42,033 bases of DNA from positions 1 to 42,033 of the forward strand of contig SXIZ01000163.1 of assembly GCA_005779525.1 (NCBI GenBank). The letters run 5' to 3'. The notes below the pieces were generated by a model, which worked only from the letters and a program-made list of their open reading frames with translations, ran no database searches and was not told the DNA's origin. The DNA comes from Methylococcaceae bacterium. GTDB taxonomy: Bacteria; Pseudomonadota; Gammaproteobacteria; Methylococcales; Methylomonadaceae. Positions 7,603 to 29,784 of this stretch are shown in pieces (position 1 is the stretch's first letter; every line of letters starts with the position of its first letter). The position numbers were made by a program, and so were the translations under genes.

Positions 7603-7607
7603 GACTT

Positions 7608-8150: not shown

Positions 8151-8179
8151 TTAATTTTCTACGTAGAAGGATATTTTAT

Positions 8180-10528: not shown

Positions 10529-10689
10529 CTATACCCTCTTTGGGATACACTTAAGAGTTGTCGTTGAATCAATACGAAAAGATTTTGAACAAGTGCATCC
10601 CATCGTATGAATTACGTGGACATTAGATTTGAAACAGGTTTGAAGATATCAGTTCCTGTAGGTATTAACTTAAGAGTGGAAAATTCATC

Positions 10690-11181
10690 ATGGTAAGCGA
10701 GACCGCAGATACTAAAAAAATTGAGCAATTTTTGACCTTTCAACTGGATGATGAAGCTTACGGCGTTGAAATTCTGAAGGTTCAGGAAATTCGTGGTTGG
10801 GAGCCTGTTCGGGTGATACCCAATACCCCGCATTACATTAAAGGGGCATTAAATTTGCGAGGCGCTATCGTCCCAATTGTGGATTTGCGGGAGCGTTTTG
10901 GCATGCAGGCTAAAGAGTATACTCCAGTCACCGTGGTCATCGTACTGTGCGTTGAAAATGCTTCAGGTAGCCATGTGATTGGACTAGTCGCGGATGCAGT
11001 TTCAGATGTTTTAGACATTCGCTCGGGAGATATAAAAAAATCTCCAGATCTGGGCTCTAAAATTGATACCCGATATATGCGCGGCATGTACGTATACAAG
11101 CAGGGTATGATTATGCTGCTGGATGCAGATCGATTGCTTAATCCGGCTGAATTTGAAGGCATCAGTCGTTTAGTGGAATAA
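10690..11181 (+). CDS. cheW: chemotaxis coupling protein CheW (copy 2)
   Basis: 163 aa. High similarity by eye to copy 1 across the core (FLTFQLDDEAYGVEILKVQEIRGWEPV...[16 protein letters not shown]). Confidence 0.9.
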   Translation: MVSETADTKKIEQFLTFQLDDEAYGVEILKVQEIRGWEPVRVIPNTPHYIKGALNLRGAIVPIVDLRERFGMQAKEYTPVTVVIVLCVENASGSHVIGLVADAVSDVLDIRSGDIKKSPDLGSKIDTRYMRGMYVYKQGMIMLLDADRLLNPAEFEGISRLVE

Positions 11182-11182
11182 T

Positions 11183-11944
11183 ATGAATGCGCGAGTGGTA
11201 GCAATTTTTAATCAGAAAGGCGGTGTGGGTAAAACAACTACTTCAACTAATCTGAGTCATGCGCTTGCAAAAGCAGGCAAAAAAGTAACCGTTATCGATT
11301 TTGATCCACAAGGACATTTGTCCATCTCACTGGGTATGTTAAATCGCCAAGCTTCTGGGATTGATGCCGTTTTACTCGATGGCGCAGATGTCTCTCAGTG
11401 TGTCATACCGATGCGAGAAAATCTTCAATTAATCCCTTCTGGACCCAAACTACATGACATCGAACTCATGAGCACGGGTGGCGCAAAGCGCAGTGAAATT
11501 TTGAGACATACTTTGTTAAATGACTTCCAAGACCAAGATTATGTGTTTATCGATTGTCCGCCTTCTTCTGGCTTATTGGTAGCAAATGTTTTATTTGCCA
11601 CGGATGAGATTTTAATTCCCATGAGCAGTGATTTTTTAGCATTGCAAGGGCTTTCAGATTTGATCAAAACTATTAGAAAATTTGAGCAGGTTTTAAAGAA
11701 AAAATACAAAACCCAAATAGTGATGGCACGCTATACTTCTAGTAGGAAATTTTCAAAAGAAGTCTTGGGTAAGTTACAGCAATATTTTCCCCAACAAATT
11801 TTAGCGACTGTAATCCGTGAGACTGCGGTATTGTCTGAATGCACTAGTTTTGGCATGACAATTTTTGAGTATCGACCTAAAAGTGTATCGGCGAATGATT
11901 TTCACAATTTAGCCAAAGATTTTTTGCAAGGTAAGGTGATGTAA
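11183..11944 (+). CDS. ParA/MinD-family P-loop ATPase embedded in the che operon
   Basis: 253 aa. Deviant Walker A FNQKGGVGKTTTS, A' box VIDFDPQGH, Walker B YVFIDCPPS. The ATG lies 1 nt after the cheW2 stop, and its TAA overlaps the next ATG (TAATG). Confidence 0.9.
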   Translation: MNARVVAIFNQKGGVGKTTTSTNLSHALAKAGKKVTVIDFDPQGHLSISLGMLNRQASGIDAVLLDGADVSQCVIPMRENLQLIPSGPKLHDIELMSTGGAKRSEILRHTLLNDFQDQDYVFIDCPPSSGLLVANVLFATDEILIPMSSDFLALQGLSDLIKTIRKFEQVLKKKYKTQIVMARYTSSRKFSKEVLGKLQQYFPQQILATVIRETAVLSECTSFGMTIFEYRPKSVSANDFHNLAKDFLQGKVM

Positions 11945-12393
11945 TGGCAAAAAAACAAGAAGAAAGTTTGCTGGGTTATGATCCATTAGCGTGGATGAAT
12001 GAGGAACCGCAAGGCGAGGAAGTTTCTGCTGCGCAAGAGCAAGAGCAAGTAGCGTCTGCTACCGAGCACAGTTCCAATGCTCAAGTAACTCAAGAAAATC
12101 AACTCAAAGTGGTTTTGGAAGCGGTTCAAAATATTCAAAATGTCGCTAATTTACGTGAGGAGATTATTAGTAAATTAGAAAATAGTTTGGGAGCTATCGA
12201 AATTGATGCCTCTGCGGTAAATTCAATTGATACTGCCACCTTACAATTATTTGTGGCCCTTAAAAAAGAAACCGATCGATTAGAACGGGTATTAGTTTTC
12301 GATTTTCCTTCAGAAAGATTTCTGGAGGCCGCTAATCTAATAGGGGTCAGCAAATTATTAGAGCTTGATAAATCTGCCTCTGGATTTTTCTGA
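11944..12393 (+). CDS. STAS-domain protein with basic N-terminal peptide and acidic linker
   Basis: 149 aa. N-terminus MAKKQEESLLGYDPLAWM, then an E/Q-rich linker of about 45 aa. The C-terminal ~95 aa show a STAS-like pattern (IEIDASAVNSIDTATLQLFVAL...VLVFDFPSERFLEAANLIGVSKLL). The STAS assignment is by eye only. Confidence 0.65.
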   Translation: MAKKQEESLLGYDPLAWMNEEPQGEEVSAAQEQEQVASATEHSSNAQVTQENQLKVVLEAVQNIQNVANLREEIISKLENSLGAIEIDASAVNSIDTATLQLFVALKKETDRLERVLVFDFPSERFLEAANLIGVSKLLELDKSASGFF

Positions 12394-12473
12394 GGGTTTC
12401 CCAATTTGTACGATGAACAAAATATCTGCACAAGATATTTTGCAGTTTTGATAGTTGATTAGGGGATTACACA

Positions 12474-13304
12474 GTGAGTAAAGCACGTGAATTTGAATAT
12501 ACGCGGGAGGATTTTAATTTTTTGCGAAAATTATCGAACGAATATTCAGGTATCATAGTTTCTGATGACAAATTTGATATGTTTTATTCGCGCCTATCGA
12601 AACGGGTTAGAGTGCTAGGTCTGCAAAGTTTTAAAGAATATTGTGTTTATTTGGAGAATAATCCAGAAAAAGAATTTACCGATTTTATGAATTCAGTGAC
12701 GACGAATTTGACGTCATTTTTTCGTGAAAATCATCATTTTGAATATCTGAAACAGACGCTCATTCCGATATTACTGAAAAAAAACAGTGCCAGCAAAAAA
12801 ATAACGCTGTGGTCGGCAGGATGTTCAACCGGGGAAGAGCCGTATTCTTTGGCGATGACCTTGTTAGAAAATGTACCCGCTGGCTGGGAAATAAAAATAC
12901 TGGCGACCGATTTAGATACGAATGTACTGAAAGCTTCCGCTGAAGGTATTTACACAACAGACCGTATTGGTGGGCTATCGCCCGAGCGTTTAAAACGCTG
13001 GTTTAAACAAGGGACGGGTGTGAATGCTACCAAGATTAAAGTTAAACCGGAATTACAGGCATTAATTCGCTTCCGCCAATTGAACCTCATGCGTGAATGG
13101 CCCATGAAGGGAAAATTTGATTTTATTTTTTGTAGGAATGTTTTGATTTATTTTGATCGGGAAACTAAAAGTCAGTTAGCCCAACGTTACGCGCAATTTT
13201 TAGAGCCCGCTGGACTACTGTTTATTGGGCATTCAGAGTCACTGCACCAATTAACTACAGATTTTGAGTTAATTGGTAATACCATTTATAAGAAAAAAGG
13301 CTAA
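12474..13304 (+). CDS. cheR: chemotaxis protein methyltransferase CheR
   Basis: 276 aa, GTG start. Motifs TNLTSFFRE, WSAGCSTGEEPYSLAM and FCRNVLIYFD are typical of CheR. Confidence 0.92.
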   Translation: MSKAREFEYTREDFNFLRKLSNEYSGIIVSDDKFDMFYSRLSKRVRVLGLQSFKEYCVYLENNPEKEFTDFMNSVTTNLTSFFRENHHFEYLKQTLIPILLKKNSASKKITLWSAGCSTGEEPYSLAMTLLENVPAGWEIKILATDLDTNVLKASAEGIYTTDRIGGLSPERLKRWFKQGTGVNATKIKVKPELQALIRFRQLNLMREWPMKGKFDFIFCRNVLIYFDRETKSQLAQRYAQFLEPAGLLFIGHSESLHQLTTDFELIGNTIYKKKG

Positions 13305-13310
13305 TAACTA

Positions 13311-13937
13311 ATGGAGTTAAGTCCACCTTCGGTTGCAGGTTTTGAAAATATTTCTCGCTATTGGGACAAAATTAATAATACGGTGGCTGCTAAGCTACTC
13401 CCTGGGGAGTATTATGTCACCAAAGAAAATGAGATGATTACCACGGTGCTTGGCTCTTGCATTTCGGCCTGTATACGCGACAAGATCTCAGGGATTGGAG
13501 GCATGAACCATTTTATGCTTCCCGAAACTTCGCAATCGCGGCTGGATGAAGGGCGCGAGTCAGTAGTAGGTAATGCAACACGCTATGGCAACTACGCTAT
13601 GGAGCATTTGATCAATACCATTTTGGCGAATGGTGGTAAGCGTAAAAATCTCGAAGTTAAAGTATTTGGAGGAGGGAAAATTATCGCGTCACTCGGCGAT
13701 GTCGGGCTAAAAAATATTACTTTTGTTATGGATTATATAGATACTGAGGGACTACTCTTGGTCTCTAAGGATTTAGGCGATATTTATCCGCGTAAAATAA
13801 ATTTTTACCCGCAGTCAGGTCGTGTACGTATGAAGAAAATTCAGGATTTGCATAATGACACGATTGCTCTACGCGAAAGTCAATACCGCCGTACCATTAA
13901 AGATGTACCCGTGGTTGGTGATGTGGAATTGTTTTGA
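13311..13937 (+). CDS. cheD: chemoreceptor glutamine deamidase CheD
   Basis: 208 aa. CheD signature (TVLGSCISACIRD...GMNHFMLP...KVFGGG). Confidence 0.88.
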   Translation: MELSPPSVAGFENISRYWDKINNTVAAKLLPGEYYVTKENEMITTVLGSCISACIRDKISGIGGMNHFMLPETSQSRLDEGRESVVGNATRYGNYAMEHLINTILANGGKRKNLEVKVFGGGKIIASLGDVGLKNITFVMDYIDTEGLLLVSKDLGDIYPRKINFYPQSGRVRMKKIQDLHNDTIALRESQYRRTIKDVPVVGDVELF

Positions 13938-13946
13938 GAAGTGTAC

Positions 13947-15059
13947 ATGGAAAAAATAAAACTGCTTATAGTTGATGATTCGGCGCTGATACGCAAAATT
14001 CTGACTGAAATTTTTAATTCAGCCCCCGATATAGAAGTGGTTGGAGTTGCTGAAGATCCGCTGATTGCTAGGGAGTTGATCAAAAAACTTAACCCAGACG
14101 TATTAACTTTAGATGTTGAAATGCCGCGTATGGATGGCATAACGTTTTTACGCAATTTAATGCGTTTGCGCCCCATGCCTGTAGTGATGATTTCAACTTT
14201 AACTGAAAAAGGTGCGGATATCACTCTTGAAGCTTTGGGTATCGGGGCTGTTGATTTTGTGCCAAAACCTAAAGTCGATGTCAAAAGTACTTTTAATGAC
14301 TATGCTGAAGATATTATTGCTAAAGTCCGTATGGCCTCTAAAGCTAAAATTCAGGGCGTGGAAGTTACAAATTCTACTTCAGGGAGTAAGCGGGCTGTAA
14401 AATCTTTACCTCCTACGGTTCTCGGATGCTCACAAAATAATTCGGTGGACATTATTATTCCAGCTCTCCTAGAGCGGCCACTAATCAGAAAAACTGAAAA
14501 AATTATTGCCTTAGGCTCGTCGACTGGCGGTACCGAAGCAGTAAAAGTTGTCGCGCGCGAGTTGCCTGAGAATACGCCCGCCATTTTGATCTCGCAACAT
14601 TTGCCTGTTGCGTTTAGTGCGTCTTTTGCCAAGCATGTGAACGATATCTCTCCCATGCAGGTGTCACTTGCTGAAGATGGGCAACCCATTTTGCCTGGCA
14701 ATATTTATATTGCGCCTGGAGATAAACATTTGTTAGTGTTGCGGGAGGCAGGGCGGTATATTTGTCGTTTGCATAGTGGTCCGCCAGTGAATCGGCACAA
14801 ACCCTCGGTTGATGTGATGTTTCGTTCAGTTGCGCAGCAGGTAGGATCTAATGCTATTGGGGTGATGTTAACCGGAATGGGTGCGGATGGTGCACGGTGC
14901 ATGAAGGAAATGCGTGATGCGGGCGCTAGAAATATCGTTCAAGATGAGGAATCGAGTGTGGTTTGGGGAATGCCAGGCGAAGCTTACCGATTAGGAGCGG
15001 CTGAAGTGGTAGTTCCTTTAAATCAGATTGCTAAACAAATACTTAAATTTGCGAGTTAA
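13947..15059 (+). CDS. cheB: protein-glutamate methylesterase/deamidase CheB
   Basis: The track ORF starts at GTG 13941; the ATG at 13947 gives [12 protein letters not shown]. It has a receiver domain plus a methylesterase domain ([21 protein letters not shown]). Confidence 0.92.
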
Positions 15060-15070
15060 CGGGAGGCAAA

Positions 15071-16261
15071 ATGAAACACTTTCTATCTAGAAACTGGTTG
15101 CCTATCGCATTGACGCTAATTTTGTTGGTTCTGCCAATGGCATTGCCAACACAGTACCTTTTTTGGATTGCCGTACCCCTTATTTCTTTAACGTGGGCCA
15201 TTAACGGTTATCAGCAAGTGAAACAAGCTGAGCAACAGCAGTTGGAGCTTGATCGACAAAATCAGTTGCAAAATATTGCGGCGATAGATACTTATTTGCA
15301 GGCTTTAGATGGCTGTATTAAACAAGAAGTGCAGCAGTTTATTGCCGATTTAGGACAGCTTCGCTCTGTAGTCGGTGACGCTGTGAACACCATGGGAAAT
15401 AGTTTTAAAAGCTTGCATAGCTTGTCATCCGATCAGGCGAGAATCGTCTTCTCAATTGTGGGCAATACTGGGAAAAATGATAAGGCAATTAGTTTTACGC
15501 GCTTTGCCGAAGAAACCGATCAAGTACTACGCTATTTTATCGATCATATTTTATTGATTAGCAAACAAAGTATGGAAATGGTGGCGGTGATTGGCGATTT
15601 GCGGGAACACATGGGTTTAGTAGAAAAACTGGTGAGTGATGTTCAAGGGATTGCTGATCAAACCAATCTGTTGGCGCTAAATGCAGCTATTGAGGCCGCT
15701 CGTGCTGGTGAAGCGGGGCGTGGCTTTGCCGTTGTTGCCGAAGAGGTGCGTAATTTATCGAAAAATTCCGATAAATTTAGCGAAGAAATTCGCAAAGTGG
15801 TTAATGCTTCGAAATCCAACATCGAGCGAGCGAATCAAATGATAGAGACCATGGCCTCCAAAGACATGAATGTTGCAATAACCTCTAAATCTAAAATTGA
15901 TCAAATGATGGCGGATATTGCGGTTATGAATGTCGCGATGGAGCAGAAATTATTGCAGGTCTCAGAATTAAGCAAACATTTGGATTTTACAGTGAACGAT
16001 GCCGTTAGAGGCTTGCAGTTTGAAGATTTAACCCGTCAATTAATCGAATACCTTCAAGGAAATACGCGGCATTTCCAAGTCCTTGCTGAGGAAGTACGTT
16101 TAGGCTTAGGGATTTTTAAAACCGATGATCCGCAATTGTGGGTGGGTGAACTGGAAAGTGGTCAAAAACGTTTACTCACGATGCAGCAAGATTGGCAAGA
16201 TAAAGGAAAAAAAATTGTGGCTCAGAACTCAATGTCGGAAGGCGAAATTGAAATGTTCTAG
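15071..16261 (+). CDS. short membrane-anchored methyl-accepting chemotaxis protein without a periplasmic sensor domain
   Basis: 396 aa. Two adjacent N-terminal TM helices have almost no loop between them. Coiled coil follows, then the tip [34 protein letters not shown]. The protein ends in EIEMF. GGGAGG RBS. Confidence 0.88.
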
Positions 16262-16315
16262 ATAAACAACTATCCTCATAGTATTTAAGAATAACGAAAC
16301 TTAGAGAGAAATATA

Positions 16316-16621
16316 ATGGCGGTAACAACTAACTTCGATGCATCAAAATCGATTTTAACTATCAAAATTGCTGGTCGATTTGATTTTGGTGCCCATCAAG
16401 ATTTTCGGAATGCTATAGATCAAATTAAGTTGACTACCAAACAAGTTGTGATTGATTTTTATGCGACAGAGTACATGGATAGCTCGGCTTTAGGTATGCT
16501 GTTGGTATTACGCGATAAAGTCAGTACGAGCTCTCAATCTATTAAGTTAATGAATATTCGGCCAGAAGTTAGAAAGATATTGGAAATTGCGAATTTTGAT
16601 AAATTATTTAATCTGGGATAA
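16316..16621 (+). CDS. STAS-domain anti-sigma-factor antagonist (SpoIIAA/RsbV/CrsA/HsbA-like)
   Basis: 101 aa. Typical STAS pattern with a candidate phospho-serine in YMDSSALGMLLVL, followed by NIRPEVRKILEIANFDKLF. Confidence 0.85.
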   Translation: MAVTTNFDASKSILTIKIAGRFDFGAHQDFRNAIDQIKLTTKQVVIDFYATEYMDSSALGMLLVLRDKVSTSSQSIKLMNIRPEVRKILEIANFDKLFNLG

Positions 16622-16829
16622 TAGGTGAGTTGCTGAAAAAGCCAAGAATGTATGATGTTCTATGCGTGATATTAATTTAAAAGTATTGTATTCTAGAAAA
16701 TTGAATGCTTTGTTTGAAGTGCTATCTTTACCGCAGCAACACACTTTTGGGCTGAGTCAAGTGACATTCAACGCTGTTTTATGAGCTTGGCGATAAATGC
16801 AGAATTTAATGGTTTAAAAATAAAAAAAT

Positions 16830-18512
16830 ATGACCGATTCATTAGCTTTACCTCATGCCAGAATTCTCGTTGCTGACGATAGTCGCTTACAACGTGAAAT
16901 GCTGGCGAGCTTGTTAGGTGATATCGGCTACCAAATTATCTTGGCAGAAGATGGTTTTGCAGCATTAGAGCTATTCAAAGCGCACCAACCTGATTTAGTG
17001 TTACTGGATATTATGATGCCTAAGTTGGACGGCATCCAAGTGGCTAGAGAAATTGCTGCACTTTTGAAAAATGATTATGTCCCGATTGTGTTCATTACCA
17101 GTATGGATACCGAAGACTTACTCAATAAATGCGTTGCTGCGGGGGGTGATGACTTTATTAACAAGCCTTATAACAGTGTTCTGCTCAGTGCCAAAATCAA
17201 TTCCTTATTACGCGTTAAAAGGCTGTATGAAGAACTGCGCAGTCAAAAACATGAGTTGCTAAAGTATCAGGAACTATACGAACAAGAACAACAAGTCGCA
17301 GCAAGTTTATATAAAAATATTTTACACGCGGATTTTGTTGAAACTTCCATCTTACGCTATTCACTGTCCCCAATGGCCTTATTTAATGGGGATATTCTAT
17401 TAACGTCCAAGGCTCCAGGAAATCGCTTTTATGTGTTGTTAGGGGATTTTACGGGGCATGGATTATCCGCGTCCATCGGCGCTGAGCCAACGGCACAAAT
17501 ATTCTATGGGATGGCGCGTAAAGGCTTCGCTGGCGAAGAAATTATTAAAGAAATCAATCGCAAATTACATAAGCTTTTACCGGTAAATATGTTTCTGGCG
17601 ACCACCTTGGTGACTTTACGCGCCGATTCCAGTTTTATGGAAATCATTACCTGTGGTTTACCCGCACATTATCTGTTACATAAACCGACGCGCAAAATCC
17701 GCAGTATTGAATCTAAGAACTTTCCCTTAGGCATCATGGCGACTTATGAGCCTAAAGTGGAATATTTTGAAATTGATCACCATGATTATCTGTATTTGTT
17801 CACAGACGGTGTGATTGAGGCCCAAAATATCGCAGGGCAGCAATTTGATATTTCTGGGGTCATGGCGTGTCTGGAAAATGAAGTCGAGTCACCGTATGAC
17901 AGTATCTTACATAATCTTGCCGTGCATACTCAGGGTTTGGAGCAGCAAGATGATGTCACTTTTGTGGAATTGCATTGTGATTTGAAAAATGCAATTTGGC
18001 AATCAGTCGGTAAGCCACTGGCGGTACAAAAATGTCCTGCATTAACCTGGAGTAGTAAGTTAAGCTTCAGTGTCGAAACTTTGCAACAAGTTAACCCGGT
18101 TCCTGTGATGTTGAATATGCTGATGGATATTCAGGCATTACAGAGTTTCCAGGAAGCGATTTTTTGTATCGTAAATGAATTATTTATCAATGCCTTGGAT
18201 TATGGGCTATTGGCGATGGATGGCAAATTAAAACTGACTTCCGAAGGTTTAATTAAATTTCATGCGATTAAAGAACAACGCTTACAAGAAGTCAAAACTG
18301 GGTCTATAGTGGTAGATTTTCAGCATCAACCTACCGAGGTGGGCGGGCGTTTACAAATTAGCTTAAAAGATTCCGGCGCAGGATTTGATTTTGCAGCGGA
18401 ATTGAAACCAAATCGTGGCATTTATCGGGTACATACCCTGTGCTCTAAATTGGAATATGGCAATGGTGGGCGTGAAGTTTTAGCTGTTTTTGATTGGAGC
18501 TATCAAGAATAA
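16830..18512 (+). CDS. three-domain response regulator: receiver + PP2C/SpoIIE phosphatase + RsbW-like GHKL kinase/anti-sigma domain (CrsR/HsbR-like)
   Basis: 560 aa. Receiver (ILVADDS, DLVLLDIMMPKLDG, KP). PP2C motifs (GDFTGHGLSAS, YLYLFTDGVIEA, QQDDVTFVEL). C-terminal N-box-like ELFINALDYG and G1-like LKDSGAGFD. Confidence 0.85.
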   Translation: MTDSLALPHARILVADDSRLQREMLASLLGDIGYQIILAEDGFAALELFKAHQPDLVLLDIMMPKLDGIQVAREIAALLKNDYVPIVFITSMDTEDLLNKCVAAGGDDFINKPYNSVLLSAKINSLLRVKRLYEELRSQKHELLKYQELYEQEQQVAASLYKNILHADFVETSILRYSLSPMALFNGDILLTSKAPGNRFYVLLGDFTGHGLSASIGAEPTAQIFYGMARKGFAGEEIIKEINRKLHKLLPVNMFLATTLVTLRADSSFMEIITCGLPAHYLLHKPTRKIRSIESKNFPLGIMATYEPKVEYFEIDHHDYLYLFTDGVIEAQNIAGQQFDISGVMACLENEVESPYDSILHNLAVHTQGLEQQDDVTFVELHCDLKNAIWQSVGKPLAVQKCPALTWSSKLSFSVETLQQVNPVPVMLNMLMDIQALQSFQEAIFCIVNELFINALDYGLLAMDGKLKLTSEGLIKFHAIKEQRLQEVKTGSIVVDFQHQPTEVGGRLQISLKDSGAGFDFAAELKPNRGIYRVHTLCSKLEYGNGGREVLAVFDWSYQE

Positions 18513-18574: not shown

Positions 18575-19189
18575 ATGAGAAAAAATCAAACAAATTCGCA
18601 GTTCGTGGCTGTGGCTTCAATTGCAGCGGAACTCAGTGCCGTTATGGATGTGGCTAAGGAAATATCTCTGGCGGCGGCAAACGCAAAAGCGATTGCCTTT
18701 CGGGCGGGGGAGAAAGCTAAAGGTTTTCAACCTATCACAGATTTTATTAATGAGTTGGCCAAGGACACCATTGAATTAGTTAATGAAATTAATCAACACG
18801 CCATGCAATTATATCAATTGACTGTGGATGAATATCGCATGACAGAAGCGCATAACAAATTTGAATTAGCCGCAAAATATGCCAAAGGTGCGCAGTATGA
18901 GCAGTCATTAAATGCGCCGCGGCTAAAAGCACAGCAAAACATGCAGGATTGTTTGCGTCAATTTAATGCCCATATTGCACAATTACTCGATCAACTGGGT
19001 GAAGTGATGCACCCTGCCCGTGCTGCACGAGTGATCGCTGCGAACTCACGTATTGAGGCTTCGCAAGCTGGAGAATACTTACAAAGTTTACAGGCAGTAG
19101 CCGAGAGCGTCGATAACGCGGCGCAAGTTATTCACGATAACGTGCAGCGGTGCCGCAGCGCTTTATCATTTATTACGATCACAGAATAG
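18575..19189 (+). CDS. soluble protein with two degenerate MCP receptor-tip motifs
   Basis: 204 aa with a good RBS. No TM segment or HAMP domain. Residues ~31-63 (SLAAANAKAIAFRAGEKAKGFQPITDFINELA) and ~150-184 (ARVIAANSRIEASQAGEYLQSLQAVAESVDNAA) both align with the tips of the two MCPs in this operon. Confidence 0.7.
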   Translation: MRKNQTNSQFVAVASIAAELSAVMDVAKEISLAAANAKAIAFRAGEKAKGFQPITDFINELAKDTIELVNEINQHAMQLYQLTVDEYRMTEAHNKFELAAKYAKGAQYEQSLNAPRLKAQQNMQDCLRQFNAHIAQLLDQLGEVMHPARAARVIAANSRIEASQAGEYLQSLQAVAESVDNAAQVIHDNVQRCRSALSFITITE

Positions 19190-19217: not shown

Positions 19218-19946
19218 ATGAAAATGACAAAAATTTACGAAGGATCGTATCAGTGGATTATGTATGGGCGTGATGAAAATAAACCCAACAATATTATTGA
19301 TACCAATCAATATATTGTAAGAACTGCGAATCGTTGTTTGTTGATTGATCCAGGTGGAATAGAATTATTTGCTCCGATGCTGGCAGCGGTATTACACCAT
19401 GCACCTGTCGAGCAAATCACTGATTTATTTGCGTCGCATCAAGATCCAGATATTATTTCTTCCTTGGGATTATGGGATCAGGCTTTGCCCAATGCTAAAC
19501 TTCACGCCCCTGCAATTTGGGAAGGTTTTTTGCGCCATTTCGGCTGTGATAGCATTGAATATGTCGCTATTCCAGATAATGGTGGGGTAATTCGATTAGA
19601 AAATGTAGAATTAAAAATTATTCCTGCGCATTATTTGCACTCTTCAGGGAATTTTCATATTTATGATCCCAATGCCAAAATCTTGTTTTCCGGAGATGTG
19701 GGTGCTGCCTTGGAAACACCGGGTGCGCCAATGTATGTCGATAATTTTGATGCTCACGTAGAAAAAATGCGTTACTTTCACCAACGTTGGATGCCATCGA
19801 ATCAAGCAAAACGCAATTGGATAGAACGTGTCCGAGAACTGGATATTGACGTGCTCGCACCACAACATGGTCGTGTCTTTAAAGGTGATGATGTTCGCCG
19901 CTTCCTGGATTGGTTTGAAGGATTACAAGTGGGGACCGCTGTTTAA
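19218..19946 (+). CDS. metallo-beta-lactamase-fold protein, ODP (oxygen-binding di-iron protein)/flavodiiron-core-like
   Basis: 242 aa. MBL-type ligand pattern LLIDPGG...SHQDPD (H74, D76, D78)...PAHYLHS (H138/H141)...FSGD (D160)...PQHG (H217). No flavodoxin domain. Last gene of the che operon. Confidence 0.65.
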   Translation: MKMTKIYEGSYQWIMYGRDENKPNNIIDTNQYIVRTANRCLLIDPGGIELFAPMLAAVLHHAPVEQITDLFASHQDPDIISSLGLWDQALPNAKLHAPAIWEGFLRHFGCDSIEYVAIPDNGGVIRLENVELKIIPAHYLHSSGNFHIYDPNAKILFSGDVGAALETPGAPMYVDNFDAHVEKMRYFHQRWMPSNQAKRNWIERVRELDIDVLAPQHGRVFKGDDVRRFLDWFEGLQVGTAV

Positions 19947-19989: not shown

Positions 19990-20019
19990 TTGACAAACCC
20001 CCTTTAAAACCGTTATCTT
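19990..20019 (+). promoter_or_regulatory. candidate sigma70 promoter for thiD (TTGACA-N18-TATCTT)
   Basis: A perfect -35 TTGACA lies at 19990-19995 and a weak -10 TATCTT at 20014-20019. The -10 overlaps the terminator stem. Pattern match only. Confidence 0.3.
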
Positions 20020-20040
20020 TCCTGATAACGGTTTTTTTAT
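20006..20040 (+). terminator. Rho-independent terminator closing the chemosensory operon
   Basis: AAAACCGTTATC (20006-20017), loop TTTCCT, GATAACGGTTTT (20024-20035), running into a T-rich tract (TTTTTTTATTTT). Confidence 0.85.
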
Positions 20041-20054
20041 TTTAGGTAAGACAT

Positions 20055-20846
20055 ATGAGTTCAATTCGGCCCGTAGTTCTATGTTTTTCCGGGCATGATC
20101 CCTGTGGCGGTGCGGGTTTGCAAGCAGATATTGAGGTACTTATTTCGCATCGTTGTCACGCTGCGACGGTGGTGACCGCGTTGACTGAACAGGATACGCA
20201 TAATATCCGTAAAGTTATTCCTCAAACTGCTGCCGAGTTCAAAGCACAAGCGCTTACAATTCTGAGTGATTTACCTGTGAAAGTCATCAAAATAGGTTTG
20301 CTTGGAAGTTATGACATTATTCTAGCGGTGCAAAAAATTCTGCAAGCGTATCCGAATATCCCGGTGGTGTTTGATCCGATTCTAGCTGCAGGTGGTGGAA
20401 TGCATTTGGCAGATGACGATTTACGGCAAGCAATGATAGAACGAATATTACCGCATACGTTTATTTGTACTCCAAACTCGCACGAGGCAAGGCAACTTAC
20501 CCAGTTGGATGATTTAAAAGCGTGTGGACGTGCGTTATTAGAGATGGGCTGTAAAAATGTACTGCTAACTGGGGCGCATGAAGATACCCGAGCGGTACGT
20601 AATCAACTTTTTCGCCCCGAGGAGACGGTAGAAACCTTTACCTGGGAACGCTTAGGTCATCAGTATCATGGTTCTGGTTGTACCTTGGCATCCAGTATAG
20701 CGGCTTTATTGGCACATGATCTGGATTGCTTCGTCGCTGTCAGTGAAGCGCAAGAATATACCTGGAATGCCCTCAGTAAGGCCTATCCTACGGGAACGGG
20801 CCAATACAATCCCAATCGATTTTTTTGGGTGGATGATGAAAATTAA
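20055..20846 (+). CDS. thiD: hydroxymethylpyrimidine/phosphomethylpyrimidine kinase
   Basis: 263 aa. ThiD/PfkB-family pattern (VLCFSGHDPCGGAGLQADI, VKIGLLGS, VVFDPIL, HGSGCTLASSIAALLA). Confidence 0.88.
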   Translation: MSSIRPVVLCFSGHDPCGGAGLQADIEVLISHRCHAATVVTALTEQDTHNIRKVIPQTAAEFKAQALTILSDLPVKVIKIGLLGSYDIILAVQKILQAYPNIPVVFDPILAAGGGMHLADDDLRQAMIERILPHTFICTPNSHEARQLTQLDDLKACGRALLEMGCKNVLLTGAHEDTRAVRNQLFRPEETVETFTWERLGHQYHGSGCTLASSIAALLAHDLDCFVAVSEAQEYTWNALSKAYPTGTGQYNPNRFFWVDDEN

Positions 20847-21183
20847 TGTTCTGGGGGTAGCCATTTTAGCGCTGGGATTAACTGCCTGCATTGCCAATAT
20901 TGCTGATCCACAAACCTTAGCCCTGGGTAAACAGATTGCCTTCGAGCGTTCTAAAGGCAATTGCTTGGCATGTCATCAAATTGCCGATGGTGAACAGCCA
21001 GGTAATTTGGGACAACCTTTGATTGGCATCGCAAGTAAATACCAGGATAAACAGCAATTGCGCCACCTAATTTGGGATGCGACCCAACACAATCCTGAAA
21101 CGACCATGCCACCCTTTGGACGCAATAAAATACTTACTGAAGCGGACTTAGACAGTGTGGTCGAGTATTTGTGGAGTTTATAG
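20833..21183 (+). CDS. monohaem c-type cytochrome lipoprotein, SoxX-like
   Basis: The internal ATG at 20833 gives MMKINVLGVAILALGLTAC (lipobox LTAC). Haem motif CLACH. The sequence PGNLGQPL...NPETTMPPFGRNKILTEADLDSVVEYL resembles SoxX as remembered. Overlaps the thiD end by 14 nt. Confidence 0.7.
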   Translation: MMKINVLGVAILALGLTACIANIADPQTLALGKQIAFERSKGNCLACHQIADGEQPGNLGQPLIGIASKYQDKQQLRHLIWDATQHNPETTMPPFGRNKILTEADLDSVVEYLWSL

Positions 21184-21187: not shown

Positions 21188-24100
21188 TTAGGCATTCATT
21201 TCGGGCAATATCTCATTTAAAACCAGCAAAGCCTTATCATATTCAAAGACATCAACATAGTGTCGAAATTCTGCAAAACGGTTGCCTAATTTGAGCTTGA
21301 GCGACGCCTCAATAGGGCGTACAAAGAAATTGCTCCGTGCATTGTTCTCTTCTAACAGTTGTTTCAATTCCAGCAAGGTAGGCAAATCCAAGATTGTTTC
21401 GGCATCTTCCGGGGCTTGATCTGGCTGAGGGATATTTTCTAATGCTTGCATAAACTTCGTTAACTCCTGCTGACATTGCTCGGTCAGTGCTAGGCATTCA
21501 GCATGCATCTCATTTTGCGTTAACAACTGATCTAATTGCGCACTAAATTCTGCAATCCGAAAAATGCCTAAAGTCGCTGCCGCCCCTTTTAAACCATGTG
21601 CAATCCGTTTGGCCTCTTGCAACTGACCTTGGTGAATCAAGTCTGTAATCTTAGGCATGTCTTGCGCATGCGTATCCACAAACATATGCAGTAACTTTAA
21701 GTATTTCGTACTATCCCCTCGGACTAGGTTCATGGCGATTGTGGTTTCTAGGCCCGGGATTCTAGCAAATTGATTGCTAAGAGCTAACGACGGTGGCGTG
21801 ACACTAAATAATGGCGTCTTGACTGGATTGGGTAACGCCTGACTAGCACTGTGTTGTTGTGGTCGAGGTAACCAGCGTAGTAGGGCGATATACAATGCTT
21901 CGGGAATAACCGGTTTAGCGACAAAATCATTCATTCCGGCATCTAAGCATGCGCGACGGTCTTCTTCAAAGGCATTGGCAGTCATGGCTAAGATGGGTAA
22001 AGTGTCGCGGTCCACGAATTCCCGAATTGCGCTCGTGGCCTCCAGACCATCCATTTCAGGCATTTGCATATCCATCAGCACTAAATCAAAGGTTTGCGCA
22101 CGGACTTTTTCTAGCGCAACACGGCCATTTTCTGCAACAGTGACGTTCAAACCGACACCATTCAGCAGGTCTAATGCAACTTCACGATTAACTGGGTTAT
22201 CTTCAGCGAGCAATAAATGTCGATCTTTATAGTAGCGTTTAATCATGGACTCGGCATCGATGGATAAGGCTTGGGTGTGATTGCTAACACGCTGGCCTGT
22301 CTGTAGCAACGCGGTAAACCAAAAAGTACTTCCAATGCCTAAGGTACTTTCTGCACCCGCACTTCCTCCCATGAGCAAGGCTAAGCGCCGGGTGATGGCT
22401 AAGCCTAAACCAGTACCGCCATATTTGCGGGTTGTGGAGGCATCGGCTTGGGCAAACGCCTCAAATAGGAGTGGTAATTTTTCAGGCGCAATGCCAATGC
22501 CGGAATCTTGCACTTCGAAGCGAACGAATATGCCATCTTGAGATTGATTAAGGACGCGGGCTCGTAGCGAAATACTGCCATGCTCAGTAAATTTTATGGC
22601 ATTACTCACATAGTTAATGACCGATTGCCGTATGCGGGTAGGGTCACCTCGTAGCCAGGCGGGCAGATCGTGGCAATCAATTTTAAGTGCTATACCTTTG
22701 GCTCGCGCTTGATCGCTGAAAATAGAGGTAATTTGATTTAATAATGCTGAAGGGGAAAAATCTGTGGTTTCCAGCTCTAAGCGGTTAGCCTCAATTTTGG
22801 ATAAATCCAGAATGTCGTTAATAATCGACAATAAATGTTGTGCCGCGGTATCGATTTTATCTAAGCGTTCAGACTGATGCGGCGTAATACTGCCCTGCCG
22901 CAGCAGATAAGTTAAACCGATAATCGCATTCATCGGTGTGCGTATTTCATGGCTCATATTAGCCAAAAAAGTACTTTTGGCACGGGTGGCCGCTTCTGCT
23001 GCTTCTGCGCGGCGTGCTAGTTCCGCTTCCATTTCGCGTTGCGGATTAATGTCGCGCGCAAAACCGACTGTCCCCAACACGGTGTTATCGGCATCGATAA
23101 TCGGCGCTTTGAAAATCTCATACAACGAACCTTGGAGGTTTAACATCGGTTCCTGCACGGTTCTCGGTTCCCGCGAACGCATGACTTGGTTATCTTCTTT
23201 AAGGTAGTGTTCTGCTAATTTTCTAGGTAAAAAATCAAAATCGGTTTTACCTAATAAGGCCTGACTGTCTAAATTATAGAGTGTGGCGAGCGGGCGATTT
23301 GCGGCAATAAAACGCCCTAAATGATCTTTTAACCACGCCATATGTGGCAGGTTATCGATCAGGGCTTGTAAAGAATGGCTTTGTTGATGTAATTCATTGG
23401 TCCGAGTTTCGACTAACTCTTCCAAATGCATACGGTAGCGGTCTAATTCTTCGCCCATGAGCATTTTCTCAGTAATATCCTCTTGTACTGAAACGAAGTG
23501 CGTAATTTGACCATTGGGCTGCCGCAAAGGGGAAATAATCGCAAATTCCGTGTATTCACTGCCATCTTTACGGCGATTGATAAATTTACCTTTCCACGTT
23601 TCGCCTTTGCGTAGGGTTTCCCAAAGTTCGACATAGGTGTCTGTTAACGTTTTACCGGATTTGCGGATGCGTGGGTTTTGTCCGAAAACTTCCTCAAGGT
23701 CATAGCCGCTATTTTTCAAATAGGCGGCATTCACATATTCGATCTTACCGTCTAAATCGGTAATGATGATACTTTCCGGACTTTGTTCGACGGCCTGCGC
23801 TAACTTACGTAGACGCACTTCGGCAATTTTAAGTTCGGAAATATTGCGTATAAATACGCTGGATAAGGTCTCACCATTTTGTAATTTGAAAATTTGCGAG
23901 GAGATTTCTGCTGGGAAGCTGATGCCGTTTTTATCGATAAGATTGAGTTCACCGCGAAAACGCCCTTCTTTTGCACGTTTTTGCAATGCGATCGCTAAAC
24001 GTGGATCCTGGTTATCCACAATATCCAGCCAAGTCAGCTGTTTTAATTCGGCCTCTGTCCGACCTAAAATGCGTTGTGCCTCATTGTTAGCGCTAATAAT

Positions 24101-25810
24101 TTGACCATTAGGATTTTTTAATAATACGCCATCCATGCTATTTTCGAAAATACTGCGGTAATGAATCTCGCTCTGACGCAAGGCATTTTCTGCTTGTTTA
24201 AGTTCGGTAATATCACGAGAAATTCCAAATATTCCAATGATTTCTTGCTGGCTATTGAATAAAGGCCCTTTGGTGGTATGAAAAATTCTGGGGCCTAAAA
24301 AGGTCTCCAAATTTTCCTCTTGTGTCCGTTGACGCTGCTCCTCAATGATTATGCGACCCGTTGCCATGATGCGTTCGGCTTGCGCAGGAGGAAAAATAAA
24401 TGCATCTGTCTGACCTATGACCGCTGCTATAGGTTTACCTACGACATTACTGGCGGCGCGGTTAAATAAAATATATTTTCCCTCCAGATCTTTAGCGAAG
24501 ATGGCGTCATCCGAGCTATCAACAATAGCTGCTAACAAACTCATGGCTTGTAAGCGTTCCTTTTGGGAATCATGAATAGCTTGCGCCATGCACAGTTCCT
24601 GATGTTGCTGAATTAGATAGTAGCTCGCGGTATTGATAAATAAGGCCAGTAAACCGACTAAGGCAATCCAAGCCGTATTTTTGATTAATTCGCTATAAAT
24701 AGAGGATTGCTCGCGGGAGGTCAGTAACAGCCAGTCGGTGTCTGGAATGGCTTGCAAAACGCCAATGATCAGGATGCCCCGATAATCTCTGTCCTCAATA
24801 ATTGCGCGTGTAGGTTTAGCTTGCACATGAGGCGCTAACAGTGTGGCTAGATTAACTTGTGCGTCTGCGGTCTGCAATTTTGGGCTAAAAATGTGTAGCT
24901 GTTCGCCTGAACGAGAAACTAATACTGTCGTTCCAGAGGTTACAGGTTCGTTGGGACTCAGTAAAGTGGGATAGATCCAATCCGCAAGCTCAATATGCAT
25001 GAGCATGACCGGAGGCGATGCTGGCAGAGTATTTAATGGGGTGATAATGTCAAAGCCCGCTTTACCTTGATTGTCGTAATATGGCCCAAGCTTTAATATT
25101 TGCCGTTCGGCGCTTGCTGTTTGCACGGCCTGTAATTGCTCGGGGGATAACGAGGTAGGCTTAGCGTCGCTTTGCCACAGTAATTTTCCCGAGGCGGTGC
25201 TTAATGCAAAACTATTAAAACGCAGGGTATGTTTTAATTGCAGCAAACGCTGCTGAAATTGTTCACCCGAAGCAGGGTCGCCATCACGTTGCCATTGCAA
25301 AAATTGCAGTGTTAGATGTTGATTGTCGCGTATAAATTCGGCACCCGCTTGGTGTTCCTTTTGCCAATCCGTAATTTGCCGCGTTTTTAATTCGGAAATC
25401 GCTAACAAGCTATCTGTAGCTTCTTGCTTTTCGTGGATATAAGAGCGAGAAATACCTAAGCCCATGAAAACTAGAATCGCGAGCCAAATGCTGATGAATA
25501 TTCGGTTTGCACGTTTCGACGGTGAATGTTCCACAGGTAATTTCGTTTCTGCAACCTTAAAGAAACGCATCAAATAGTAAAGAATGAACGACGTTACCGC
25601 GACAAATACCCAGCCTTTGAGCATGCTGACCAGCGTAATTTGTTCAGGATCATGCAAAAAACTGGCAACTAATTGATCAGAAAATAAAATCCATGCCGAC
25701 GCAAACATGGCATAAATCAGCACGATTCCCAGAATGCTACCTTGGCTGCCTGTCCGTGTCGAGGTGGGTGAGTTTGATGGAGAGGAGCGTGAAGGTGAGT
25801 GATCAGTCAT
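21188..25810 (-). CDS. hybrid sensor histidine kinase (TM/periplasmic sensor, 4 PAS, HisKA, HATPase, receiver, HPt)
   Basis: 1540 aa. TM segments flank a ~250-aa periplasmic Cache/PDC-like region, followed by four PAS/PAC modules. H-box [11 protein letters not shown]; HATPase (DSGIGI, GGTGLGL); receiver [14 protein letters not shown]; HPt [11 protein letters not shown]. Its ATG overlaps the upstream gene's stop by 8 nt. Confidence 0.93.
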
Positions 25811-26723
25811 GCGGTGCAGTTGCGCTGGCTAACGTGTAAAAACGGGCGACTACGGTATTGCCATTTCCTTGATATTCTAAGTAATCGAAACTCAATTTTT
25901 TAGCAATGGCGATACCACGTCCATGTAAATCAAAAGCCCGTTCCGATGAAAATTCTAAGTAGCTGCTCCAATCGAAGCCTGTCCCTTGGTCTTGCACAGT
26001 AAATTGTAGAAATTCGGCTTGGCGTTGAAAGTGCACATTCACATAACGCGTCCGATATTCGGGTAATTGTAGGCGACGAGCAATCTCATCATGCCACGTA
26101 TTTTTAAGCAGTAATGCGCCTTTTTCAGCATAAGAGATTTCTAAATTTCCATGCTCTACGGCATTGGTCAGTAGTTCTTGCAACCCTTGGACTGCGCGTT
26201 CGGGTTCGGGACAAGCTTGCGCCAGATAATTGGCGAGCAGGACCGCTTCATCTAAGTTGTGAAAACGAAAGCTTCCCATTTGTAATAATGCCACGGGGCG
26301 CTCTGCACTTCGCACGCTATTAAGCATATTGTTAATATTTTTGGATTGTTCTTCTGCTGCTTTGACAACGGCGAGTAACACTTCAGCCTGAAATGGCTTG
26401 GTCAGATAGTAGTAAGCGCCATGGATTAAGCCTTCGTGAATGCTTTCATGATCACCTTGAGCGGTTTCAATGATGACTGGGGTATTTGCAAAACTGGTAT
26501 CACTTTTAATCCGTCGCAATAATTCCAGGCCATCTAAGCCTGGTAGTCCGCGATCTAACAAAATAATATCGTAAGGCGGTTGGGTCGCTTGTAAATTTTC
26601 CCATGCGGATAAGCCATCCGAGCACACATGGACCGAATATCCTTCACTGGTCAGTAAGTCCTGAATAATGATGGCAATTAGCAATTCATCTTCAGCTAAC
26701 AGAATACGGGTGGGTTGACTCAT
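25803..26723 (-). CDS. response regulator: receiver fused to an RsbW/SpoIIAB-like GHKL (HATPase_c_2-type) domain
   Basis: The ATG at 26723 ([13 protein letters not shown]) overlaps the upstream TGA (ATGA). Receiver [14 protein letters not shown]...KP. C-terminal N-box [14 protein letters not shown]1-like QDQGTGFD, G2-like GRGIAI. Confidence 0.8.
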
Positions 26724-27829
26724 ATGCTTACTTCCATTTCTGAATCGCGGTAGCGTTCCGCAATTTGACAAAAATTATTAAAATTCTCCAGAAATGCAGT
26801 CGTCATATCCGGATCAAAATGGGTGCCTTGTCCTGCGGCAATAACCTCGCGCGCATGTGCAAATGTCATTGCAGGCTTGTAGACACGTTTGGAAATCAAG
26901 GCATCAAATACATCAGCAATCGCCATAATCCGGGCTGATACCGGAATATTATTGCCGGATAAACCATCAGGGTATCCACTGCCATCCCATTTCTCATGGT
27001 GCCAATGCGATATTTCTTTAGCAAGTGCGAGGAATTCCACTGAGCCCTGAGTATCACGTTCAGCTAATTCAATCGCATCATAACCAAGCTTAGCATGGGT
27101 TTGCATGACCTGCCATTCTGCAGGACTGAGTTTTCCAGGTTTTTGTAAGATGGCATCTGGGATACCGACTTTGCCAATATCATGTAGGGGGGCTGAACGG
27201 CTAAGTAACTTTATGTAGCGCTCATTGAGTGTAGTTTTCAACTGCGGATGCCCCGTTAACAACAGTGCTAATTGGTTAACGTAACCTTGAGTGCGTAAAA
27301 TATGATTTCCAGTTTCAGGATCGCGGGTTTCTGCTAAATGCGCTAAGGCCCGAATACTAACTTCCTGAATAATTTCATTCTCTTCCATTCGTTTATTGAC
27401 TTCAGCTTCCAGCCAGTGATTATGGTAGCTTAAAGCATCTCGGGCGCGCTTTAACTCCAATTGCGTATGAATTCTGGCCAGCACGATTGGAGGGATAATA
27501 GGTTTGGTAATGTAGTCCACCGCTCCCTCGATTAAACCGTGTAATTCTGCGTCCATACTGTCCATCGCACTGACAAAAATAACAGGAATTTCAGCGCTTT
27601 GTGGCTGGTTGCGTAACGCTTGAAGCACCTGATAGCCGTCCATTTCTGGCATCATAATATCTAACAGAATCAGGTCTGGCAGCGGTTGGGTATTCACGAT
27701 GCTTAAGGCTTTGCGACCTGACGTGGCCACGCGCACTCGATACAGTGGTTGCAATAATTCACTGAGTACCGTGAGGTTTTCAGGGGAATCGTCAACAATT
27801 AAAATCGTATGCGGATGGGTTTCGAGCAT
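26720..27829 (-). CDS. response regulator with HD-GYP domain (c-di-GMP phosphodiesterase, RpfG family)
   Basis: 369 aa. Receiver (ILIVDDS, DLILLDIMMPEMDG, KP). HD-GYP motifs HDIGKVGIPD and HHEKWDGSGYPDGL. GGAGAA RBS. Confidence 0.9.
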   Translation of the reverse strand: MLETHPHTILIVDDSPENLTVLSELLQPLYRVRVATSGRKALSIVNTQPLPDLILLDIMMPEMDGYQVLQALRNQPQSAEIPVIFVSAMDSMDAELHGLIEGAVDYITKPIIPPIVLARIHTQLELKRARDALSYHNHWLEAEVNKRMEENEIIQEVSIRALAHLAETRDPETGNHILRTQGYVNQLALLLTGHPQLKTTLNERYIKLLSRSAPLHDIGKVGIPDAILQKPGKLSPAEWQVMQTHAKLGYDAIELAERDTQGSVEFLALAKEISHWHHEKWDGSGYPDGLSGNNIPVSARIMAIADVFDALISKRVYKPAMTFAHAREVIAAGQGTHFDPDMTTAFLENFNNFCQIAERYRDSEMEVSI

Positions 27830-28164: not shown

Positions 28165-28180
28165 TGGCATGCATGGTGCT
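28165..28180 (+). promoter_or_regulatory. sigma54 (-24/-12) promoter for flgB operon
   Basis: TGGCAT-GCATG-GTGCT compared with consensus TGGCAC-N5-TTGCW. The GG and GC are correctly spaced. Ends 33 nt upstream of the flgB ATG. Confidence 0.65.
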
Positions 28181-28213
28181 TTATATTTTGTAAAGTTTAC
28201 GGAGGTAACCACC

Positions 28214-28621
28214 ATGACTATTAATTTTTCCAATGCTTTGGGTATTCATCCAGATGCGCTACGTTTACGCGAAAAACGTAGTGTGGTGCTGGCGTCTAAT
28301 ATGGCGAATGCAGATACCCCCAATTATAAAGCTGTGGATTTAGATTTTCAGTCTGTACTGAAACAAACCACAGACGAAGAGCAGCGTAAACATTTACGCC
28401 TGGAAACTACGCACCCAGCACATATCGCGCCGCCACAATTGTCTTTAAACGGCGAATTGCTCTATCGTAATCCGAATCAGCCAGCCATTGATGGTAATAC
28501 CGTAGAAGCGCATGTGGAGCAGGCAAAGTATTCAGAAAATGCGGTGCAATATCAAGCCAGTTTGCGCTTTATTAATGGCAGCTTTGCTGATTTAAAAACG
28601 GCACTTAGAGGAGGGCAATAA
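28214..28621 (+). CDS. flgB: flagellar basal-body rod protein FlgB
   Basis: The ATG at 28214 lies 8 nt after GGAGG. 135 aa. Motif ASNMANADTPNYKA. Confidence 0.92.
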   Translation: MTINFSNALGIHPDALRLREKRSVVLASNMANADTPNYKAVDLDFQSVLKQTTDEEQRKHLRLETTHPAHIAPPQLSLNGELLYRNPNQPAIDGNTVEAHVEQAKYSENAVQYQASLRFINGSFADLKTALRGGQ

Positions 28622-28623
28622 CC

Positions 28624-29040: not shown

Positions 29041-29052
29041 GGAGAATAGACT

Positions 29053-29766: not shown

Positions 29767-29784
29767 GATTTTTGGAGGTGTGAC

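Follow-up and report, generated by a model that had tools for sequence, protein, structure and literature searches.

ODP, a diiron protein that binds oxygen, is genetically coupled to Treponema denticola TDE2496, a homologue of methyl-accepting chemotaxis proteins (MCPs) without transmembrane and sensing modules (PMC7666581). TDE2496 can modulate the kinase CheA and probably joins membrane arrays, and deletion of ODP alters the ordering of CheA in the array (PMC7666581). Here, we analysed a window of 42,033 nucleotides, contig SXIZ01000163.1 of a Methylococcaceae bacterium (assembly GCA_005779525.1), in which a gene just upstream of an ODP gene codes for a soluble protein that carries two receptor-tip motifs in one chain and is here called the tandem-tip protein. 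The reading that we hold to be probable, with moderate confidence, is that it is a minimal, sensor-less single-chain chemoreceptor and the dedicated partner of ODP, with a tip that docks to CheW and the P5 domain of CheA.

The other systems closest to it are both natural and engineered. Thermotoga maritima TM14 is an ODP-cognate receptor of the same type as TDE2496 and homodimerises into a four-helix bundle; TM14 structures are available as PDB 3g67 and 3g6b, and those of tip fragments as 3ur1 and 4jpb. DosM (VC1403) of Vibrio cholerae has two signalling domains and stabilises a two-layer F9 cytoplasmic array with baseplates 35 nm apart. DosM is long and spans both array layers, with its tips at opposite ends. 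Among laboratory constructs, two Tm14 or Tar tip fragments of 71 residues have been fused into dyads ("foldons", reportedly also made by Greenswag in 2015), which bind both CheA and CheW and switch the kinase off (bioRxiv 10.1101/2020.03.27.011866). A single-chain Tsr~Tsr signals in vivo; its rationale was that the identical subunits of a dimer differ in place, one lying at the trimer axis and one being peripheral and contacting CheA/CheW, and single-chain Tsr constructs showed subunit swapping (PMC4692393). Within the Tsr tip, residues E385, R388 and F396 are central to switching (PMC6681711).

The tandem-tip gene and the predicted parts of its product are located in the window as follows.

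18575–19189, plus strand: tandem-tip gene, ATG start, stop codon included, 204 residues (from the list of open reading frames and the sequence)
18581–18880, plus strand: predicted hairpin 1, residues 3–102, with a helix at 3–48, a tight turn at about 49–51 and a helix at 52–102 (from AlphaFold2, couplings and the TM14 match)
18680–18760, plus strand: tip motif 1, residues 36–62, NAKAIAFRAGEKAKGFQPITDFINELA (from conservation in 132 representatives)
18881–18898, plus strand: distal connecting loop, residues 103–108, variable in sequence (non-helical in both AlphaFold2 models, low conservation)
18899–19183, plus strand: predicted hairpin 2, residues 109–203, with a helix at 109–162, a turn at 163–165 and a helix at 166–203 (from AlphaFold2, couplings and the C-half profile)
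19043–19123, plus strand: tip motif 2, residues 157–183, NSRIEASQAGEYLQSLQAVAESVDNAA (from conservation and alignment to TM14 and tip 1)

The first copy of the motif starts as N36-AKAIAFRAGEKAKGF...INELA and the second, 121 residues away, as N157-SRIEASQAGEYLQSLQAVAESVDNAA. An initial annotation, made from the DNA letters, had described a soluble 204-residue product with two tip motifs about 120 residues apart, and both motifs are present at a distance of 121; the operon sequence with which it had compared them is the tip of the 396-residue McpA-like receptor (15071–16261). The same annotation had seen no transmembrane segment, no HAMP domain and arms too short for methylation helices, and our data agree. 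The highest 19-residue Kyte–Doolittle mean is 1.5, as expected of a soluble protein without a transmembrane segment, and a Pfam search gave no match to HAMP. The helices are 35–53 residues long in the AlphaFold2 models, about seven heptads, and form neither long methylation helices nor an assignable heptad class from 24H to 64H. The methylation-site consensus [ASTG][ASTG]xx[EQ][EQ]xx[ASTG][ASTG] has no match in the tandem-tip protein, while the Aer2-like receptor of the operon has three.

By sequence comparison, both halves are true homologues of receptor tips, with a resemblance beyond chance. The Pfam model MCPsignal (PF00015) matches the protein at an E value of 2.2e-6 in two stretches (28.1 bits), and many close homologues bear a precomputed match to it. 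The N-terminal and C-terminal halves match each other by BLASTP (E value 4e-5) and in a profile–profile comparison of the family alignments (P value 2e-5), in which residues 15–70 fall on 136–191 and N36 on N157. In a search of the PDB with the whole protein, the best solved relatives were TM14 and the TM14 tip fragments, at 1e-5 through residues 12–81. A profile built only of C-terminal halves (44 diverse members) found the TM14 tip at 7e-7, TM1143 at 6e-6 and PcaY at 2e-4, and its alignment puts SRVEAxxAGE onto the canonical receptor-tip stretch of TM14. Taken singly, C-terminal halves seldom reach the Pfam model, yet their profile matches tips, which indicates that copy 2 is degenerate but homologous. 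The outcome that the initial annotation had named as adverse, no profile match to the MCP signalling domain for either half, did not occur, as both halves match receptor tips. Chance resemblance is ruled out, since each half significantly and independently matches receptor tips as well as the other half. Also ruled out is one long hairpin of the TM14 kind, whose tip would lie at the central loop: the TM14 tip aligns to residues 43–51 and not to about 105, and residues 85–135 are the least conserved.

The two tips do not keep the same residues. On our own mapping to the Tsr numbering, hairpin 1 retains the equivalents of N381, R388, G390, E391, G395 and F396 but not of E385, whereas hairpin 2 retains the equivalent of E385 (E161) and is without R388 and the G-R-G-F turn. 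As the Tsr-equivalent residues are split between the hairpins, the halves complement each other and are not redundant.

The protein has many relatives. We found 479 homologues at an E value of at most 1e-3 in a 90%-clustered database; the best 120 of these come from Methylococcales, are 201–215 residues long with at least 74% identity, and carry the names "chemotaxis protein", MCP or hypothetical. When 1.84 billion representatives at 50% identity were searched exhaustively with a profile, there were 318 matches, 209 of them at 1e-10 or better. Evident fragments (about 100–180 residues) aside, these are 195–256 residues long, mostly 200–215, and align to almost the whole of the profile. Named members of the family include Vibrio brasiliensis and Candidatus Velthaea, and NCBIfam has no model for it. 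Conservation, spacing and couplings were computed from 132 representatives with 25–40% identity to the query. N36 is invariant and the N36-to-F51 spacing identical in all 132, and L20, A37, R43, G45, F51, L137, E161 and A162 are conserved in at least 90%. Conservation is highest at both tips and lowest in residues 85–135, and the best-conserved positions (N36, R43, G45, G50, F51 and E161) are those that define receptor tips. The tip-to-tip distance from G45 to G166 is exactly 122 residues in 92 of the 132 and 120–124 residues in 122 of them. The halves have diverged to about 25% identity. Tandem-tip proteins form a widespread natural family under length constraint.

One match of the representative search differs from the others: in P0261 (229 residues), residues 157–207 match family residues 8–58 almost exactly; about 150 unrelated residues stand N-terminal to the match, and the sequence after it is divergent. 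This protein could result from a fusion, from a frameshift or from faulty assembly.

The protein is predicted to fold as an intramolecular four-helix bundle of two non-identical hairpins and not as a homodimer. With 30 close homologues, AlphaFold2 gave a local confidence (pLDDT) of 82.6 and a predicted template-modelling score (pTM) of 0.71, with helices at 3–48, 52–102, 110–162 and 166–200 that break exactly at both tip motifs and at the loop 103–109. With the 132 diverse sequences, the model was all-helical with a pLDDT of 95.2 and a pTM of 0.87, the five models all exceeding a pLDDT of 92.9. In the latter model, DSSP left the helix 3–102 unbroken at tip 1, the turn presumably being scored as helical. 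A straight 100-residue helix is ruled out, as Foldseek aligns the model in about 200 columns, at a root-mean-square deviation (rmsd) of about 8 Å, to compact four-helix bundles. For both models, the top Foldseek matches were single-chain four-helix bundles of about 196 residues (the maquette 6z0c and the designed reaction-centre proteins 5vju and 8d9p), aligned in about 200 columns with rmsd of 7–9 Å and template-modelling scores of 0.42–0.48. There was no match at an E value below 1e-3 in either run, and the result speaks to topology, not homology. Alignments of about 200 columns to such bundles would be impossible for a straight 150-Å helix or for hairpins placed end to end, which points to a compact up-down-up-down bundle with both tips at one end.

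Residue couplings from mean-field direct coupling analysis (DCA) are consistent with this topology. With the helices numbered H1 to H4, antiparallel H1–H2 couplings have i+j of about 89–101 and H3–H4 couplings i+j of about 327–341. The strongest coupling, I58–V175, joins helix 2 to helix 4 at an offset of 117, and K47–E167 connects the two turns, tip to tip. Among the top 100 pairs, 39 lie within the bands of a same-end bundle (H1–H2 and H3–H4 antiparallel, H1–H3 and H2–H4 parallel and in register, H2–H3 and H1–H4 antiparallel), in comparison with 15.4 expected (about 2.5-fold, hypergeometric p about 1e-8). In this arrangement, H1 neighbours H2 and H4 and has H3 on the diagonal, as would be expected if H1–H4 correspond to the helices N, C, N′ and C′ in a dimeric receptor. 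The idea of the initial annotation, that tandem hairpins could form a single-chain four-helix tip, thus gains support from AlphaFold2 (pLDDT 95.2), Foldseek and the couplings.

The gene is flanked by a chemosensory operon and an ODP gene, positioned as follows.

5062–18512, plus strand: stage-1 F7 chemosensory operon, from CheY to the response-regulator PP2C phosphatase (RR-PP2C), upstream of the tandem-tip/ODP pair (from Pfam and gene order)
19218–19946, plus strand: gene of ODP, the diiron protein that binds oxygen, 28 nt downstream of the tandem-tip gene (from Pfam, PDB and adjacency)
20006–20035, plus strand: terminator-like hairpin, a 12-bp stem plus T run, after ODP (consensus match only)

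What had been noted as an adjacent ODP-like protein is a true ODP: it matches PF19583 at 1.4e-72 and, among the ODPs of the PDB, 6qrq at 3e-63 over residues 9–240 and 6qnm at 9e-55, and keeps the HQDPD motif. The terminator-like hairpin would close the operon after ODP; between the RR-PP2C gene and the tandem-tip gene, no comparable site was found. A confirmed relative was present in 221 species genomes, and 80 loci of these, all from Methylococcales, were used for synteny. ODP is the next gene downstream, on the same strand, in all 76 Methylococcales loci whose sequence reaches far enough for a decision, with a mean ODP identity of 83%. It is also the next gene in seven of eight distant members (25–38% identity), where it usually overlaps the tandem-tip gene by 4–23 nt or abuts it, with 4-nt-spaced cases too, and where the pair sits among unrelated housekeeping genes. 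A lone che-type gene lies 1–7 kb away in two of the distant contexts, an MCP in L090 and a faint-CheW/CZB protein in L092. Immediately upstream of the pair, an F7 gene is found in 42 of the 72 Methylococcales loci with at least 3 kb of upstream sequence, after CheB in 23, after RR-PP2C in 12 and after STAS in 7. The F7 cluster is thus ruled out as an obligate partner, being upstream in only 42 of 72 loci and joined at three different junctions. With ODP constant and the che operon variable, the unit on which selection acts is the two-gene module and not the che operon.

The 23 CheB-junction loci are of the Methylobacter/Methylovulum type (among them L050–L053, L056, L057, L059, L060, L062–L067, L070, L072, L074 and L076–L080), and matches to the McpA-like receptor, STAS and RR-PP2C were not detected in them. 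As the tandem-tip gene comes right after CheB and there is no McpA-like match, the pair there occupies the position held by the McpA-like receptor in the window. The eighth distant member, P0230 (251 residues; L091:7560–8530, JGI 3300041415 contig Ga0439232_0001615), has as its next, overlapping gene that of a CDGSH iron–sulfur protein of 76 residues, and not ODP; the cluster of P0230 includes a protein from a metagenome-assembled genome of Candidatus Velthaea sp. This pairing suggests that the tandem-tip scaffold can take a different metallo-sensor.

As the tandem-tip gene is almost always just upstream of ODP, its product is probably the adaptor of ODP to the chemotaxis kinase. Of the functions listed by the initial annotation, a docking partner of the adjacent ODP-like protein is the one favoured by our data, ODP being near-invariant, downstream and often translationally overlapping. 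The annotation had also offered a decoy, cap or nucleator of CheA/CheW. A mini-receptor cognate to ODP seems likelier than a decoy or cap, since the pairing of ODP with a sensor-less soluble receptor is already an established system (PMC7666581). In such a mechanism, the two hairpins of about 100 residues would lie next to each other in a single intramolecular four-helix bundle, their tips at the same end, reproducing the kinase-control tip that ordinary receptors assemble from two subunits. ODP, a diiron O2/Fe(II) sensor, would bind the bundle, and the tip end would dock to CheW/CheA-P5, either alone or within an array, where it would stand in for a receptor dimer. The array concerned would, in the window, belong to the stage-1 F7 system that is transcribed together with the pair; this system would acquire a diiron input next to its PAS-containing Aer2-like receptor. 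The output of CheA would then follow the metal or oxygen state of ODP, as for ODP with the single-hairpin TDE2496 in Treponema. As the hairpins differ, they may have divided between them the inner (trimer-axis) and outer (peripheral, CheA/CheW-binding) roles that fall to the identical subunits of a dimer. Binding of the tandem-tip protein to ODP, to CheA/CheW or to arrays, and the division of labour, are what we infer from the evidence above.

A wider form of the idea is possible, and we propose it tentatively. The protein could be a natural asymmetric receptor "dimer" in a single chain, serving as a general plug that links soluble metalloprotein sensors, usually ODP and, in at least one lineage, a CDGSH protein, to arrays. 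Its hairpins would then be specialised, one for the trimer axis and the other for the peripheral position that binds CheA/CheW or the sensor. In that case, the separation of subunits for which single-chain Tsr was built would already have been carried out by evolution.

Several points weigh against a mini-receptor dedicated to ODP and docking to the kinase. The whole-protein PF00015 score of 28.1 bits falls short of the gathering score (34.6), so that membership fails at the curated threshold, and single C-terminal halves match PF00015 at E values below 0.01 in only 2 of 44 cases. Going by sequence, the tips, above all tip 2 without its G-R-G-F, may have lost CheA/CheW binding. No che operon is beside the pair in 30 of the 72 Methylococcales loci or in any of the eight distant contexts, so that synteny does not show a tie to any one che system. 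The modelled same-end topology draws on Foldseek alignments of modest template-modelling score and on a noisy DCA (effective number of sequences, Meff, 132), for which the bands were set post hoc and intrachain and domain-swapped packing look the same. Finally, the predicted bundle of about 7 nm is without a methylation region, and the adaptation enzymes of the operon would thus be unable to act on it.

Some of these points speak for other explanations. The protein might be a partner of ODP without a link to chemosensory arrays: a tip-derived bundle that binds, stabilises or regulates ODP or signals to a non-Che target, with the tip-like residues kept for bundle packing or ODP binding. The missing che operons and the housekeeping neighbours of the stand-alone pairs, the sub-threshold Pfam score and the degenerate tip 2 are all in keeping with this, and the member paired with a CDGSH Fe–S protein suggests a general role as "metalloprotein partner". 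Yet conservation is strongest at just the positions that define the tip, the described role of ODP is that of a chemotaxis sensor acting through a tip-containing receptor, and the pair stands at the 3′ end of an F7 che operon in 42 of 72 loci. As it is joined there at three junctions, the pair appears to have been recruited to che clusters repeatedly, and we consider a role confined to ODP unlikely. Less probable still is a decoy, cap or competitive inhibitor, whose tip would bind CheA/CheW or receptor trimers without signalling and so titrate the kinase off the arrays or end array growth, perhaps under the control of ODP. The lack of a sensor, HAMP and methylation region would suit such a protein, and engineered single-chain tips of Tm14 and Tar deactivate CheA autophosphorylation. 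The strict coupling to the ODP sensor, however, argues for regulated signalling over constitutive titration, and TDE2496 is described as a modulator of CheA that is probably integrated in arrays. The decoy and the ODP-cognate mini-receptor are hard to separate on present data.

The remaining alternative concerns architecture: the bundle might be intermolecular, as a domain-swapped dimer or as a double-headed rod that bridges two CheA/CheW layers like DosM. Subunit swapping in the single-chain Tsr constructs gives a precedent, DCA is blind to the difference between intrachain and interchain contacts, and the operon has features of cytoplasmic clusters in its ParA-like protein and soluble receptors. 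We nevertheless think it very improbable. Two independent AlphaFold2 runs gave a compact monomer (pTM 0.71 and 0.87), the four helices were all aligned by Foldseek with compact bundles (rmsd about 8 Å), and the in-register inter-hairpin couplings, tip to tip included, contradict a rod with its tips at opposite ends. By our own estimate, such a rod would measure about 17 nm, too short for the 35-nm spacing of the two layers. The in-register couplings and the compact Foldseek alignment together rule out a DosM-like double-headed rod.

The surroundings of the pair show features of their own. The F7 operon has the order CheY, CheA, CheW, Aer2-like PAS-PAS-HAMP receptor, CheW, ParA-like ATPase, STAS-like protein, CheR, CheD, CheB, McpA-like receptor, STAS and RR-PP2C phosphatase. 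The operon is complete, and its order matches the stage-1 F7 order that Ortega et al. described for V. cholerae and Methylomicrobium alcaliphilum, and the F7 cluster of the latter, MEALZ_2869–2879, has 11 locus tags from the F7 CheY and a gene list without the tandem-tip/ODP pair (PMC7184735). Between the second cheW and cheR of the window (11183–12393, plus strand) are a ParA/MinD-like ATPase of 253 residues and a weak-STAS protein of 149 residues, both outside the published stage-1 F7 gene order. The ATPase recalls the ParA-like partitioning proteins of cytoplasmic chemoreceptor clusters; there is no ParA-like match in the Methylomicrobium/Methylotuvimicrobium loci L018, L019 and L027, where the STAS-like gene is still present. 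The Aer2-like receptor (8180–10528, plus strand) ends in ...NWDEF, which fits the motif x-[HFYW]-x2-[HFYW] of the CheR tether of Aer2-like receptors. The McpA-like receptor (plus strand) ends in ...GEIEMF, has a hydrophobic N terminus with a hydropathy peak at residue 9 and shows no match to the methylation consensus. The RR-PP2C (SpoIIE) protein (16830–18512, plus strand; 560 residues) has no Pfam match in its last approximately 170 residues, which may hold an unrecognised output or partner-binding domain.

Downstream of the pair, a cytochrome c reading frame (20716–21183, plus strand) overlaps the 3′ end of a ThiD-like gene (20055–20846) by about 130 nt; an internal Met opens a stretch that resembles a signal peptide, so that the gene probably starts further downstream. 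The locus is also flanked by more genes for signalling and motility. At 21188–27829 on the minus strand are a multi-PAS hybrid histidine kinase of 1540 residues with receiver and Hpt domains, a receiver-HATPase_c_2 protein and a receiver-HD protein (PF13487, HD_5). The plus strand at 28169–35835 carries flagellar rod, hook and ring genes, from a rod protein through FlgD, FlgE, FlgH and FlgI to an FlgJ-like protein; the first frame of this stretch (28169–28621) has no Pfam match.

The MCP tip, the pairing of ODP with a receptor and the idea of a single-chain dimer are already known, and the databases label the family "chemotaxis protein". What appears to be undescribed is a natural tandem-tip pseudo-dimeric receptor of minimal size and its place as the usual partner of ODP in the lineages sampled; we found no description of a natural tandem-tip protein in the literature, in a search that was thin on subscription journals. 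In Gammaproteobacteria and the other lineages sampled, ODP-linked receptors appear to be mostly of the tandem type and not of the TM14 type. The protein is, to our knowledge, the smallest receptor-like module. Dividing the roles of dimer subunits experimentally has needed engineered single-chain receptors prone to subunit swapping, and a natural soluble pseudo-dimer of 23 kDa, probably monomeric and with diverged halves, would be a ready tool for this question and a tractable object for structural work on the control of CheA by the tip. In methanotrophs, which rely on counter-gradients of O2 and CH4, a pair attached to F7 would give a second O2-related input beside Aer2.

Compared with the known systems, the tandem-tip protein is most like TDE2496 and TM14. 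Like them, it is soluble and without transmembrane, sensor or HAMP modules, and its presumed role is the relay of the ODP state to CheA. Its gene is coupled to that of ODP as the TDE2496 gene is (76 of 76 Methylococcales loci and 7 of 8 distant members), and TM14 is the best solved match to both of its halves. The architecture, however, differs. TM14 forms a single long hairpin whose tip is close to the centre of the chain of 213 residues, whereas the tandem-tip protein consists of two short, non-identical hairpins in 204 residues, with tips at about 45–51 and 163–167 and each hairpin about one-third as long as the arm of a normal receptor. In the alignment, residues 43–51 correspond to the tip of TM14, and the N-terminal arm of TM14, about 75 residues, is without a counterpart. 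With the engineered dyads, the protein shares two hairpins per polypeptide, a pseudo-dimeric tip and a similar size (2 × 71 against 2 × about 100 residues), but the dyads are made in the laboratory from identical halves, whereas the tandem-tip family is natural and widespread and its halves are about 25% identical with complementary tip residues. DosM is likewise a natural receptor with two signalling (tip) domains per chain; the tandem-tip protein differs from it in having 204 residues, tips that are predicted to lie side by side, and a link to ODP, following an F7 operon here and F7 or standing alone elsewhere. In comparison with the canonical MCP signalling domain (PF00015), the hairpin-tip sequence is homologous and the antiparallel coiled-coil architecture is shared, whereas the helices have about 7 heptads against 12–32, methylation sites are absent, and a pseudo-dimer is predicted in place of a homodimer.

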